The notes below the pieces were generated by a model. That model saw only the letters and a list, made by a program, of their open reading frames with translations, was not told where the DNA came from and did no database searches. A stretch of DNA of 64,000 nt from Candidatus Latescibacterota bacterium. Its GTDB lineage: Bacteria > Latescibacterota > UBA2968 > UBA8231. Below are positions 50,490 through 54,563 of this stretch, piece by piece (position 1 is the stretch's first letter; the number at the start of each line of letters is the position of its first letter). The stretch spans positions 3,730,305-3,794,304 of the forward strand of contig CBDCNM010000002.1 in the NCBI GenBank assembly GCA_965219385.1, written 5' to 3'. The position numbers and the translations under genes are program-made.

Positions 50490-51614
50490 GTGCCGACAGT
50501 AGGATGGATCCACGAAAAGATGGTCGAGCGAGACCATGAAGCTGCAGAAAAGCGAAGACCGCCACCAAAGTTTCCATGCGTTGATTGCGGACGGGAGTTC
50601 CCAGATCCAGGTACCTTGAGGGACCATATACGTCTTCATCATCCGCAAGCGATGCCTAAGTTGCTCTTCTCAGGAACTGTGGTCGCAAAGCAAATGGTGA
50701 TTCGCCGGCCGCTCGTTGCAGACGGGATCGAGTTTGTCAATTGTAGTAGTGTGCAAGTTCATCTGGATGGCAGATTTGTCAAGGTCGAGCATGAGGATCT
50801 GCCCGCTTGGCTATCAAGGAGAGACACTGGGCATGTGCACATAGTTGCCCAGAATTATCGCTCCGTAGACCAAGGACTTGCGCGGACCGAATGGTTGCTT
50901 GAACTTCGTCTCGCCCGACAGGCGGAGCTTAAGGAGTGCGATAGGGCATTCGAAGAGCATCTGGCAGTTCCGAATCCGACGATGCGGGACGTTGACCAGT
51001 TCCTCGGTATGTGCCCACGTAGCTTGGGCGCCATTGACTATTCCGGTGCTCTCGCAGACTATGTTGTGGGCTTGCTATTGAAGGAGCAAGCATCGCCAAG
51101 TGGGATCCGAGGAGATCTCAAGAACTTCAAAGACAAGCTCATGAATGCACTGGAGATTCTTCAATGGCATGAGACCAGAGTTGCGCGCTCTGTCACGGCA
51201 GTATGTAAGTTCTCCCTGAATGCTTGGAAGCGGATACAAGTACCGCCGAACCTAGCCGAACTAGATGCCGCAGTGGCTTTCTATCTCTCCTTGGTGGAGT
51301 CAAGACACGTGGAGTTCTCAGGGCATGGCATACCCGGAGGGATTCCAACATGCTATGTAGATCAGGCAACTAAGTGGATCCTCCAAGCGGCGATGGACTT
51401 GCGCCAGGAAAGAGCGGAGAATGCTGCCCTGGAGGAACTGCGATTACTTCGGCAAAACGATGGGCTGACAGAGTACGACTTGGTTAAAGTTGACGTACTA
51501 CTGGCGGTGATTGAGAGTCGTATGGGAAGACAAGAGGTAGCCAAGAACCATCTCCAGAGACTCCAGTTCGATGAACACTTCGGTGCTTGGGCAAGAAAGG
51601 AACTACATGGTTGA
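50490..51614 (+). CDS. Protein with an N-terminal classical C2H2 zinc finger and a helical C-terminus
   Basis: GGAGGAGG RBS before GTG at 50490; FPCVDCGREFPDPGTLRDHIRLHH fits F-x-C-x2-C-x3-F-x5-L-x2-H-x3-H. Confidence 0.8.
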   Translation: MPTVGWIHEKMVERDHEAAEKRRPPPKFPCVDCGREFPDPGTLRDHIRLHHPQAMPKLLFSGTVVAKQMVIRRPLVADGIEFVNCSSVQVHLDGRFVKVEHEDLPAWLSRRDTGHVHIVAQNYRSVDQGLARTEWLLELRLARQAELKECDRAFEEHLAVPNPTMRDVDQFLGMCPRSLGAIDYSGALADYVVGLLLKEQASPSGIRGDLKNFKDKLMNALEILQWHETRVARSVTAVCKFSLNAWKRIQVPPNLAELDAAVAFYLSLVESRHVEFSGHGIPGGIPTCYVDQATKWILQAAMDLRQERAENAALEELRLLRQNDGLTEYDLVKVDVLLAVIESRMGRQEVAKNHLQRLQFDEHFGAWARKELHG

Positions 51615-52680
51615 TTCTAGGGACTTCAAGGACCGTAGGCAAGCCACAATAAAGGCGGAAGTCAGGAATGGCGACCTTAGGAGGGATGCCCAAGACGAAA
51701 GGACTGTGCTGGATCAGTTGGACATCCGCGCTTTGTTCAGGAAGAAGCCGTCAACAACGCTTCCAAGATTTCGGAAGAAGCTGCGGGAGGGCCAACTAGC
51801 CCAACTGGACGAACGGGCGCTCGACGCTCTTGCCGGTGAGGTGATCCGCAACAGGCAGCTCCCGAAGCTATCCACCATGATGTTATCACTGGTGACCGGG
51901 GCAGGGAGTGAACCTCTGGCAATACAGTTGGCAGCGCTAGCCGCGCGGGTAGTCGCCCAAGCCACGGAATCAACGACGACCTCGGACGGAGTTCGATCGT
52001 GTCCGGTGCTAAGAAGCGGCGAAGATGTGCTCCGGTTCGCGATGGATGAAGTTCCACGAGTAAAGGGTGAGAAAAGTAGACACAATCTGGCGGTACTGAT
52101 CGCAATAACGAGCATCCAAGCGGGCTTCATGCAGCTAGATGAGCTCACCGGCTATATCACTAAAGTGCTAGCACGGAGACCGAAGACCGGCCGGCCACAG
52201 GCCCCGGAGGAGGCGCTTCATGAAGCCCTTCTATACAACATGGTCAGACAAACAGATCTAAATGCAGCGTTGAGCATCAGGGCCGTCTATGAGGTTATTG
52301 TCCGCGACCTGAAGCACGAAAATGAGCGCCTGAGAAGCATCGGGGATGTACTTGAAAGACGACTTGCAGAAACCGAGGCAGCCTCGGAGGAGGGGAGGGG
52401 ACGGATTCAAAAGCTGCAGGGAAAGGTCACGACCTTGGAGTGTGATATCCAAGGTCTGAAGCAAGATCTTGTATCACAAAAGACTAGCTCGTTGTACGAA
52501 TTACAGACGGTTAAGGCCCGGATGATGGGCGTATTTTGTGGTGAGTTGACACGATGGTTGGCGACTGCCCAGGACGCCGCGACAGCTGACCCACCACATG
52601 GACGAGTGGTGATCGAACGGCTCGAACAGGCTCTACGCAAAATCGAGGAGGAGGTACAGTGGCTACAATCTTCGGTTTAG
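51607..52680 (+). CDS. Hypothetical helical protein with a long C-terminal coiled coil
   Basis: Start overlaps the previous stop; heptads in LKHENERL...LQGKVTTLECDIQGLKQDL. Confidence 0.75.
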   Translation: MVDSRDFKDRRQATIKAEVRNGDLRRDAQDERTVLDQLDIRALFRKKPSTTLPRFRKKLREGQLAQLDERALDALAGEVIRNRQLPKLSTMMLSLVTGAGSEPLAIQLAALAARVVAQATESTTTSDGVRSCPVLRSGEDVLRFAMDEVPRVKGEKSRHNLAVLIAITSIQAGFMQLDELTGYITKVLARRPKTGRPQAPEEALHEALLYNMVRQTDLNAALSIRAVYEVIVRDLKHENERLRSIGDVLERRLAETEAASEEGRGRIQKLQGKVTTLECDIQGLKQDLVSQKTSSLYELQTVKARMMGVFCGELTRWLATAQDAATADPPHGRVVIERLEQALRKIEEEVQWLQSSV

Positions 52681-54563
52681 ACTTCGGTACTACGAACAGC
52701 TTGGTTTCGTTCATTCAAGAGGATCGGGAGGCAGGCCAACCCGTGGTACGCAGCCTAACCCACCTTACCGATGGTCGCCCACATCCTTCGGTGGTTTGGT
52801 TCTCCCCTGAAGGTCCCGTGGTCGGACGAAATGCGCGTGATAAAATGTCAGACCTCGGAGTCGGCGTGTTCGGAGACATCGTGCGGTCACCGAAGATCTA
52901 CTTGGGCGGACCCGCACCAATTGTAGTAGGTGGAGTCGTCCGATCTAGCGTCGATGTCGTGACAGAGCTGTTTCAGTATCTCCGAGAAGACGCACTCAGC
53001 CGGGGCTTTCCGGAGCAGGAGTTTTCCAGAGCCGTCGTGACAGTGCCTGTAAATATGCGGGGGAAAGCGCGCCAGGAATTGCGGCAGGCTGCGAACCAGG
53101 CGGGAGTCTGCATACATCAGTTCGTACACGAACCTATGGCCGCTCTATATGGCTACCTACGAGGAATGCCCAATTTCCATTCAGAAGTTGCGCGGCTGGA
53201 GGGCCGCATCGTTATGGTGTTTGATTGGGGCGGTGGCACGCTAGATCTGACGCTCTGCAAGATAGAGCAGGGCACAATACTGCAAATCCTCAATGCCGGT
53301 GAAGCATCCGCAGGCGGCGACCGGTTCGATTTGAGGGTTCTGAATCGGGTGAAGGAGAAGCATCAGGAAGAGCATCCGGCGGCTGATTGGCGGCGGCTTC
53401 AACCCACTGCCGAAGCAAGGCTTCTGAAGCACTGCGAAGATGCCAAGATTCGTCTGTCCGAAAGCGAGGAAACGACCATTTACTTAAGGGAGATCTTACA
53501 GGGTCCCGGGAGCGACCTCGATGTGACCCTGACCCAATCCGAGTTGCGGGGCCTTGTGGACGATCTTGTAGAGAAGGGCCTTTCAACAATCCCCCGTCTG
53601 CTTAAGCGGGCCGAGTTGCCGATTGGGGCAATTGACCTTTGTGTCGTGACAGGTGGAATGGTCGCCATGCCAGCAATCAGGGAGGGGCTGATCGAAATCC
53701 TCGGTGGTGGCAGGGTTAGAGAAATAGAGAATGCAGCGACGGTGATCAGTGAAGGCGCGAGCTGGATCGCTCATGATGGACTTAGTGTGAGACTCGCTAA
53801 GCCGATTGAGATCCTGAACTGCCATGATGTGTACGTCCAGGTAGTAGGAGCGCACTCCGATCTACCACAAGAAGGAACGCAGATTCAGCAAAAGATTTCG
53901 CTTTACTGTGTCGATCCACGGGATGGATTCGCCAAGGTGCAGGTCGCTCGACCTCGGTGGCCCGGCCAGGGAATCTCCTTGGACGATAGGTTACCCTATG
54001 CATGTCTGTGTGTGGATGTTGATACCAACAGTCAGCCTTTACAAGAACGACTTGACCTAGAAGTCGTAATTGACGACAACCTGATCGCCAACGTGGGAGT
54101 TCGTTCGATGCTGAGTGACAACTACAAGGAAGTGGAGATCCACGACCTTGAGTTTGGACTGGGCGTCGCCCAGGCCTGGGGGGATGGTGGCGGCCGATCT
54201 GTGGATGCCGGTGGGGATACAATAGGCGGTGGTGGCATCAGACAGCCTCGAACTCCGGGAGAGGTGAGGATTCGAGGCAATGTGGCAGTAACGGAAGACT
54301 GGGGAGGTGTTCCGGGTGAAATCGTGGGATACTACCGCCGGGGTCACACGCTCAGCCGCCGTCAAAGGGACGAGAAGATGTACTATTTCCCTTGCGTTGA
54401 GTGTGGAAGGAATATCTATCAGATTGAGCGTGACGGATGTGACCGGTGTTCGGAATTAGGACTAGCTGCGTCCGCCGAGGAGGCTCAACAAGAAGGTCGG
54501 AATTGTGACAGCAGGAGAGTGGACCCAACTGCGCCTTGTAGAGCAAGTGCGTGGCAAGTCTGA
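52659..54563 (+). CDS. Divergent Hsp70-family ATPase with a C-terminal CxxC...CxxC Zn ribbon
   Basis: GLDFGTTNS, VVTVP, HEPMAA, FDWGGGTLD, GGDRFD, EDAKIRLS, TGG; CVECGR...CDRC; GGAGGAGG RBS. Confidence 0.9.
   Translation: MATIFGLDFGTTNSLVSFIQEDREAGQPVVRSLTHLTDGRPHPSVVWFSPEGPVVGRNARDKMSDLGVGVFGDIVRSPKIYLGGPAPIVVGGVVRSSVDVVTELFQYLREDALSRGFPEQEFSRAVVTVPVNMRGKARQELRQAANQAGVCIHQFVHEPMAALYGYLRGMPNFHSEVARLEGRIVMVFDWGGGTLDLTLCKIEQGTILQILNAGEASAGGDRFDLRVLNRVKEKHQEEHPAADWRRLQPTAEARLLKHCEDAKIRLSESEETTIYLREILQGPGSDLDVTLTQSELRGLVDDLVEKGLSTIPRLLKRAELPIGAIDLCVVTGGMVAMPAIREGLIEILGGGRVREIENAATVISEGASWIAHDGLSVRLAKPIEILNCHDVYVQVVGAHSDLPQEGTQIQQKISLYCVDPRDGFAKVQVARPRWPGQGISLDDRLPYACLCVDVDTNSQPLQERLDLEVVIDDNLIANVGVRSMLSDNYKEVEIHDLEFGLGVAQAWGDGGGRSVDAGGDTIGGGGIRQPRTPGEVRIRGNVAVTEDWGGVPGEIVGYYRRGHTLSRRQRDEKMYYFPCVECGRNIYQIERDGCDRCSELGLAASAEEAQQEGRNCDSRRVDPTAPCRASAWQV

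Follow-up and report, generated by a model that had tools for sequence, protein, structure and literature searches.

We analyzed a 64,000-nucleotide (nt) window of contig CBDCNM010000002.1 from a Candidatus Latescibacterota bacterium, in which three genes, here called A, B, and C, form an operon on the + strand (50490..54563; all positions are those of the window unless a locus is named). C encodes an Hsp70 that lacks the alpha-helical lid. The operon is intact across many phyla and is usually found next to or within anti-phage systems, which makes an undescribed chaperone-based immune module its probable identity. We consider it slightly better than an even bet that the trio represents a widespread Hsp70-driven system of four modules that has moved horizontally and belongs to the bacterial defense gene pool. 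A defense-type function is read from the defense-gene context of the operon and its relatives, and on that ground the trio is probably a candidate anti-phage module. A first-pass annotation, made from the sequence alone, had already proposed a candidate defense operon at this position, and the computational results support it: the three genes co-occur elsewhere, correspond to no described system that we found and to no ordinary chaperone locus, and lie near defense genes. The operon and the two parts of it referred to most often below are as follows:

50490..51614, + strand: gene A, 374 amino acids (aa), GTG start at 50490, TGA stop at 51612-51614
50571..50642, + strand: C2H2 zinc finger of A, residues 28-51, C30-x2-C33-x12-H46-x4-H51
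51607..52680, + strand: gene B, 357 aa, ATG start at 51607, stop at 52678-52680
52659..54563, + strand: gene C, 634 aa, GTG start at 52659
54258..54476, + strand: tail module "D" of C, residues ~534-606, conserved in alignment A1 (28 C homologues)

The three reading frames are unbroken, share a strand, and each overlaps the next, so the earlier description of three intact co-oriented open reading frames (ORFs) with overlapping stops and starts is borne out by their coordinates. Upstream of the GTG of A stands GGGGAGGAGGATCGA, a strong Shine-Dalgarno sequence. The ATG of B falls within ATGGTTGA and B therefore overlaps the end of A by 8 nt, while the GTG of C is preceded by GAGGAGGAGGTACA (context also given as GAGGAGGAGG) and the overlap with B extends for 22 nt, up to the stop of B. 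The ribosome-binding sites had all been called strong, which is true of A; that of B, AAGGAA, is only moderate and weaker than claimed. Counts of predicted promoters and terminators were not above those in shuffles. The GC content is 0.53–0.56 over 50.5–57 kb vs. 0.62–0.69 in the flanks, as expected from the annotation, which had described this DNA as less GC-rich than the host genes.

The arrangement recurs widely. When one genome per species was scanned with a profile, 478 places encoding a C relative were found; the best 80 were taken with their flanks (loci L001–L080), picked by C-family motifs alone. In 75 of the 80 loci, jackhmmer on six-frame ORFs placed A, B, and C on the same strand and in this order, each gene abutting the next or overlapping it. 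The five exceptions are two loci in which A was not found (L002, L043), two in which C runs off the contig (L007, L077), and one in which C lies at a contig start (L055). Single-sequence searches placed an A-like ORF directly upstream in most loci and a B-like ORF in 40, and 8 of 10 database homologues of A share a record length with records of C homologues. A C relative was also detected on three of 2.9 million viral contigs, with A-B-C present in 3/3. Since the same order recurs in 75/80 loci, the A-B-C arrangement is more than chance, and the gene order is conserved among homologues as the first-pass reading would have it. Hosts include Pseudomonadota (alpha, beta, and gamma), Verrucomicrobiota, Chloroflexota, Acidobacteriota, Actinomycetota, Bacteroidota, Planctomycetota, Desulfobacterota, and others; the closest 120 C homologues listed are at least 45% identical to C. 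Among 61 related genomes, A was found in two, the window's own and one other, at 29% identity. Horizontal acquisition of the trio, which had been claimed earlier, fits this presence in 2/61 relatives together with the drop in GC content and the insertion sequence (IS) elements on both sides.

C belongs to the Pfam family HSP70 (PF00012; residues 99-371, E 3.5e-40, 138.2 bits vs. a cut-off of 20.6). It consists of an ATPase domain (~1-372), the beta subdomain of the substrate-binding domain (SBD-beta, ~378-503), a Gly-rich linker (~504-533), and the tail module. Residues D8, K79, E158, D189, G191–G193, T194, and D196, which align with the catalytic and phosphate-binding positions of DnaK, are invariant in 28/28 aligned C homologues (alignment A1), in keeping with the claim that C retains the Hsp70 ATPase motifs; judged from these residues, the ATPase should be active. 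A profile of the 28 homologues aligns with DnaK (5obu) at E 8.3e-53 over positions 4-498 of 613, running through the ATPase domain and SBD-beta and then ending, so that the alpha-helical lid is absent. What follows is the Gly-rich linker and a CVEC...CDRC pattern (C579, C582, C594, C597), just as had been described from the sequence.

An ordinary DnaK, HscA, or HscC locus was considered and is ruled out by profile scores, by the missing lid, by the absence of J-domain or GrpE partners, and by a canonical DnaK encoded separately in the source genome, on another contig. C scores 131.6 and 128.4 bits against the DnaK equivalogs NF001413 and TIGR02350 (cut-offs 648 and 822.55), 126.6 bits against the HscA equivalog TIGR01991 (cut-off 708.55), and 51.4 bits against the PRK11678-type "molecular chaperone" NF008673 (cut-off 331), and it is 29% identical to its own genome's DnaK over 391 columns of the ATPase domain. 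Neither A and B (E <= 0.01) nor the window neighbors scanned match a DnaJ or GrpE family in Pfam, in agreement with the annotation, which had seen no adjacent J-domain gene. Two further differences from DnaK lie in the ATPase domain. An invariant glutamine, Gln154, replaces the arginine before the INEP motif, a residue known from DnaK genetics as part of the J-domain contact, and C has an insertion of ~8 residues relative to its own genome's DnaK after the ...AALYGY motif, within which residues 172-181 fall.

The tail module comprises a VRxRxNV...VPGE segment followed by a four-Cys Zn ribbon (C579, C582, C594, C597; nt 54393-54449). Across the 80 loci, it forms part of C in 63 and is encoded by a separate downstream gene in 13; of the others, one is ambiguous, one has no tail found (truncated contig), and two have a C that is not closed. 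Where C ends at ~505-530 residues, the tail is an ORF of its own that overlaps the stop of C (phmmer E 1e-15 to 1.6e-19). The first-pass description of a three-component system thus holds for the conserved A-B-C trio, and is to be amended by the tail as a fourth conserved module. In two loci, the separate tail gene also carries a restriction-endonuclease domain:

L019:8511-9863: split tail with Pfam REase-ARP (PF22558), E 9.2e-12
L027:7963-9291: split tail with Pfam REase-ARP (PF22558), E 7.8e-14

These two genes, neither of which has a PADLOC match, are the sole variants seen with a recognizable nuclease. Some C homologues add an FGE-sulfatase-type or RNA polymerase alpha-CTD domain after the tail, and with such variable domains appended the tail behaves as an adaptor for output or targeting domains. 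The term "REase-ARP" was not found in the full-text literature searched; the Pfam name itself may hint that curators noticed a nuclease variant beside some "ARP".

The zinc finger of A, reported from the sequence as a eukaryote-style C2H2 finger, matches Pfam zf-C2H2 (PF00096) above its cut-off (residues 28-50, E 9.6e-6, 26.2 bits vs. 25.2), and its ligands C30, C33, H46, and H51 are invariant in 48/48 aligned A-family members (alignment A2). The profile from this alignment reaches eukaryotic ZNF236 proteins through the C2H2 motif alone. Besides zf-C2H2, A matches no family in Pfam, NCBIfam, PADLOC, or PHROGs. Its AlphaFold 2 (AF2) model is confident, with a predicted local distance difference test (pLDDT) score of 89.9 and a predicted template modeling (pTM) score of 0.83, and is predicted to contain an N-terminal helix, the C2H2 finger, a beta-sandwich (~57-140), and a helical domain resembling tetratricopeptide repeats (TPR) at 144-373. 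Compared by VIA-align, residues 144-374 match TPR and DUF309 chains at Z 6.5–8.6, a range common for helical repeats, and residues 52-142 give immunoglobulin-like matches at an overall Z of 6.4–8.6 that may mirror a common arrangement only. Pfam TPR is not matched by A, and a protein atlas gave a weak lead only (0.79), to a C2H2+TPR cluster. Among longer proteins, no fusion of A with B or C was found, only eukaryotic zinc-finger proteins, which is a weak type of evidence.

None of Pfam, NCBIfam, PADLOC, and PHROGs has a family that matches B. Its 98 representative homologues (E <= 1e-3) are poorly conserved, with a mean column identity of 18%, the C-terminal part excepted. The AF2 model (pLDDT 84.5, pTM 0.53) consists of a helical domain (~40-211), one long helix of ~110 residues (215-326), and a terminal helix (332-356), and it bears out the prediction of a helical protein with a long coiled coil. 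B is probably a dimeric coiled-coil scaffold. A role as a GrpE-like exchange factor was set aside, having neither sequence nor fold support, and would be speculation only.

A predicted complex links the first and third genes. For C(1-620) and A, modeled with our own unpaired alignments, the interface score ipSAE, which expresses model confidence, was 0.70 (0.70, 0.67, and 0.74 in individual runs), compared with 0.00 for the best of three controls. Of 157 solved complexes, 116 reach the ipSAE mark used here, as do 2 of 215 mismatched pairs. The runs share at least 77% of contacts, and partner pLDDT is at least 80. On the C side the interface takes in residues 172-181, 305, 308, 322-323, and 338-353, and on the A side residues 93-95, 113-115, 138, and 165-219, that is, the edge of the beta-sandwich and helices 165-219; the zinc finger lies outside it. 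Going by the DnaK alignments, residues 338-353 of C would be a helix in the ATPase domain's lower lobe II, close to the linker exit. The model supports binding of A to the ATPase domain of C at a family-specific surface.

The case for defense comes from the genes around the trio in its relatives. For each locus, the closest ORF on either side of the trio was counted as a neighbor, by a greedy six-frame pick (n = 148; the Pfam scan covered the first 128). At E <= 1e-5, 53/148 have a PADLOC match (42/128 plus 11/20), and 32/148 score at least 200 bits. In the control, 23 window ORFs outside the island, there were 2 generic matches (HEAT repeats, ABC transporter), neither of which reached 200 bits; Fisher p is 0.008, with a control that is small and drawn from one genome. 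Defense genes are thus enriched near the trio, as the first-pass reading had anticipated.

More telling than the match rate is the placement of the trio inside defense operons. In three loci (L006, L051, L070) it occupies a BREX cluster in the order PglX-[ABC]-PglZ-BrxL, and partial versions are seen as [ABC]-PglZ in L072 and PglX-[ABC] in L062 and L078. Type I restriction-modification (R-M) genes precede it in L052 and L060 (HsdM-HsdS-[ABC], followed by PDC-S15 or PDC-M72A candidates) and in L071 (HsdS-[ABC]-PDC-M72A), where the scan did not include the upstream HsdM. Hma genes (HmaB or HmaC) adjoin it in L023, L040, and L076, helicases of the phospholipase D (PLD) type in L005 and L024, PDC-S68 in L008 and L014, and GmrSD-type genes in L059, L064, L067, and L078, while ZacC, JetD, AbiEi, and a type III restriction enzyme each occur beside it in one locus.

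No described system with this layout was found, in line with the first-pass annotation, which recognized none. In PADLOC v2.0.0, including its HEC models, A and B match nothing, and C reaches 13.4 bits (E 0.0058) against PDC-M61B, with no stretch passing alone. We did not find a description of the A-B-C gene set in the full-text literature, a search with subscription journals and supplements outside its scope, nor did that literature yield an Hsp70-centered bacterial immune system characterized by experiment. Hsp70-containing conflict systems have been predicted earlier; what is new here is the gene set with two unassigned partner families. The closest cellular parallel is DnaK-DnaJ-GrpE: C likewise has the Hsp70 ATPase fold, SBD-beta, the catalytic residues, and two dedicated partners. 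C differs in lacking a lid and carrying a Zn-ribbon tail, in the Gln154 that stands for Arg, and in having partners without a J-domain or GrpE match, and the trio is patchy in distribution and located in islands.

Among conflict systems, the type III CoCoNuT systems with CnuD and Hsp70-McrB fusions also come close; CnuD acts together with an McrB-like GTPase and McrC homologues, and its Walker A-like motifs are described as degenerate (Bell et al., 2024, PMC11090510). In contrast, the ATPase residues of C are invariant, its operon has no McrBC gene, and A and B are of unrelated families. No AAA_5 or McrB family was found among the window island genes, and a McrB-like AAA_5+EVE gene stands 3' of the trio in only 3/80 loci (L022, L030, L038). 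The GTPase-tubulin-HSP70 conflict systems are built around TRAFAC GTPases with tubulin, or around GrpE and DnaJ-fused FNIII proteins (Kaur et al., 2020, PMC7159879). Like the trio, they are predicted conflict systems with an HSP70 family protein as the NTP-dependent regulatory part; unlike them, A, B, and the window neighbors contain no GTPase, tubulin, GrpE, or DnaJ family. The terms "C2H2", "ARP", and "actin" do not occur in that paper. EACC1-protease modules have a lid-less DnaK-like domain ~50% identical to DnaK, fused to a protease with a pore-forming effector; as in the reading of C given here, this Hsp70-like domain of an immune module is a proposed sensor of misfolded or phage-related proteins (PMC12642450). 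C is only 29% identical to DnaK, and the trio has neither protease nor EACC1. A different kind of resemblance is one of niche. PARIS, TgvAB, and the PADLOC "HEC" candidates are systems embedded in BREX, R-M, or Hma loci. The trio occupies the same positions (flanked by pglX and pglZ, downstream of hsdS, or next to Hma genes) with proteins unrelated to theirs.

How such a system might operate can be outlined from the domain content and the modeled complex; what triggers it, what B and the tail do, and that the result is anti-phage are our inferences. C would act as an ATP-driven sensor or switch whose SBD-beta captures a peptide segment of a phage or phage-perturbed protein. The beta-sandwich and first TPR-like helices of A may dock on the base of the ATPase domain, next to the exit of the interdomain linker, where A would substitute for a J-domain co-chaperone, leaving its C2H2 finger free to recruit a target or nucleic acid. 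The long helix of B could dimerize the assembly, and the Zn-ribbon tail would serve as the output adaptor, nuclease-bearing in some relatives. In most copies, including that of the window, the output would be non-enzymatic, with the target sequestered or remodeled, or would be passed to neighboring restriction-type systems. A stricter version of this scheme, in which a complete, J-domain-independent Hsp70 cycle is both sensor and executor, SBD-beta sees phage proteins such as anti-restriction proteins directed against the surrounding BREX, R-M, and Hma systems, the C2H2/TPR cofactor replaces DnaJ, and ATP-driven capture either neutralizes the invader or licenses a Zn-ribbon-borne nuclease, would amount to a new class of prokaryotic immunity; it is tentative, and we would not wager on it.

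Other explanations account for parts of the same evidence. The insertion of the trio inside BREX and R-M operons or beside Hma genes (L006, L051, L070, L072, L062, L078, L052, L060, L071, L023, L040, L076), along with the lack of an effector enzyme of its own in most copies, is what would be seen if the trio were an accessory or guard module for BREX, type I and III R-M, Hma, and DISARM-like systems, one that assembles or remodels their large complexes, or that detects phage anti-restriction proteins or strips them off, a role also proposed for embedded modules. We regard this as rather unlikely: most of the 80 loci, and the window itself, have no directly adjacent BREX, R-M, or Hma gene, the REase-bearing variants of L019 and L027 look self-sufficient, and autonomous systems also sit inside BREX and R-M loci. 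It is improbable that the trio is instead a selfish or maintenance module of mobile islands, working in addiction, exclusion, or anti-defense, and carried along with defense islands while giving the host no protection from phage. Its patchiness (2/61 relatives), the IS flanks in the window, the integrases, resolvases, and Mu-type transposases that adjoin it in L020, L043, and L063, and the three viral contigs carrying it all point that way; against this, the operon has no toxin-antitoxin-like small gene pair, A has no plasmid match, the trio is very rare in viral contigs, and its neighbors are mostly defense genes rather than genes for transfer or replication.

Least probable of all, and in our view very unlikely, is a specialized housekeeping or stress chaperone, such as an HscC-like paralogue with its own cofactors and a cellular client, whose location in an island is incidental. 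In its favor, C is a true Hsp70 that retains the ATPase residues and SBD-beta, co-chaperones are commonly TPR proteins, and some loci are flanked by metabolic genes. A housekeeping protein sits poorly, however, with presence in 2/61 relatives and a canonical DnaK already in the genome, with scores far under the DnaK, HscA, and PRK11678 cut-offs, and with the atypical GC content, the IS flanks, the insertion in BREX and R-M operons, and the nuclease-fused variant.

Several observations weigh against the favored reading of the trio as a defense system moved among genomes. No effector enzyme is recognizable in the window copy or in most relatives, and apart from the 13.4-bit match of C to PDC-M61B, none of the three proteins matches a PADLOC model. 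Foldseek comparison of the A and B models with the Protein Data Bank returned nothing at E <= 0.001 for either, the fold matches of A are middling (best Z 8.6), and the A-C score remains a confidence of the model built on unpaired alignments. As to mobility, tblastn with A in 72,556 plasmid records gave no match, a search for C in 50,697 phage records gave only DnaK-like matches of <30% identity, and viral contigs with a C relative are rare. The neighbor statistics also have their counterweights, beyond the size of the control: 95/148 neighbors have no PADLOC match; some matches are generic (IscS-like DndA, HTH, OmpA, NUDIX); metabolic genes flank several loci (E1 dehydrogenase, isocitrate lyase, FGGY kinase, ATP12); and, because gene calling was crude, a few "neighbors" are spurious or pieces of the trio, e.g., L036:4824-5384 and L007:6985-7440.

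Hsp70 is among the best-studied protein machines, and the operon offers a compact test case that is widespread, the species-representative genomes holding at least 478 places of this kind. One question is how an Hsp70 is driven without J-domain or GrpE, for which the predicted A-C interface is specific and can be mutated; others are what a chaperone adds to defense and why insertion of this one in operons of BREX, type I R-M, and Hma has happened repeatedly. A guard against anti-restriction proteins, if that is what it proves to be, would add a protein-remodeling layer to bacterial immunity.

Two other gene associations were seen among the relatives. In three betaproteobacterial loci (L057:1642-4563, L066:1522-4437, L073:1655-4576), a ~973-aa protein that starts with a dynamin GTPase domain and ends with an MIT_C (PLD-like) domain is encoded directly upstream of the trio and co-oriented with it; it may be a recurrent partner or a neighboring system. 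The McrB-like AAA_5+EVE genes mentioned above (L022:6704-8956, L030:4137-6563, L038:4915-7167), all alphaproteobacterial, begin ~24 nt past the trio and are followed by a conserved ~430-aa gene. This looks like an adjacent type IV restriction system.

Within the window, the trio lies in an island of ~11 kb located between two copies of a giant gene. The other features of the island are:

46848-47375, - strand: cyclic-nucleotide-binding-like ORF, 175 aa, at the left island edge (E 1e-4, 22.7 bits, below the cut-off of 27.5)
47761-48750, + strand: DUF2806 (TIGR03899-like) gene, by Pfam
48817-49821, + strand: DUF6602 gene, by Pfam; PADLOC PD_DExK at E 8.3e-29, NucC-type effector models
50107..50367, + strand: possible IS110-type transposase fragment, weak (DEDD_Tnp_IS110, E 0.034, 14.4 bits, below the cut-off of 29)
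54600..55241, - strand: IS630-type (DDE_3) transposase remnant, directly 3' of C (Pfam DDE_3, E 4.2e-7)
55282..56214, - strand: IS5-type insertion sequence, transposase at 55307-56179 (DDE_Tnp_1, E 1.7e-31; DUF4096)
56248-57081, + strand: DUF4238 protein (Pfam, E 8.7e-14)

The IS5-type element is bounded by inverted repeats of 20 nt (55282-55301 and 56195-56214) that are 95% complementary. Pfam thus confirms DUF6602, DUF4238, and the IS elements, which the first-pass annotation had named as neighbors. The R-M remnant listed with them was not found: 12 small ORFs (46.8–48.1, 49.4–50.5, 54.6–55.2, and 57.2–57.9 kb) have no R-M family at E <= 0.1. DUF2806 and DUF6602 (47761-49821) form a possible separate two-gene nuclease defense candidate upstream of the trio. 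The DUF4238 protein has no PADLOC match; we take DUF4238 to be a single-gene defense system in DefenseFinder.

No tRNA was found in the window. Long direct repeats were considered as att-type island borders and rejected, as they are the 3' ends of paralogous giant genes. There are three such genes of surface type, all on the - strand: 30800-42973, encoding 4058 aa; 44078-46744, a truncated or split copy (606+275 aa); and 57894-63953, encoding 2019 aa. Their products contain leishmanolysin (M8), leucine-rich repeat, cadherin, and fibronectin type III domains, to which the largest adds LDL-receptor class B repeats and dockerin. The 3' ends of the giant genes repeat at a spacing of ~13.8 kb, and a stretch of 26 nt is identical at 44006-44031 and 57829-57854. 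The GC content falls to 0.47–0.58 in the interval (42500-44000) that separates the 4058-aa gene from its truncated paralogue. At the other end of the window, positions 34-6481 (- strand) encode a phosphoenolpyruvate mutase/cytidylyltransferase fusion, a CDP-alcohol phosphatidyltransferase, and a GT4 glycosyltransferase that also matches Pfam "GT4-conflict" (E 6.6e-11), in what looks like a phosphonate or glycan modification cluster.

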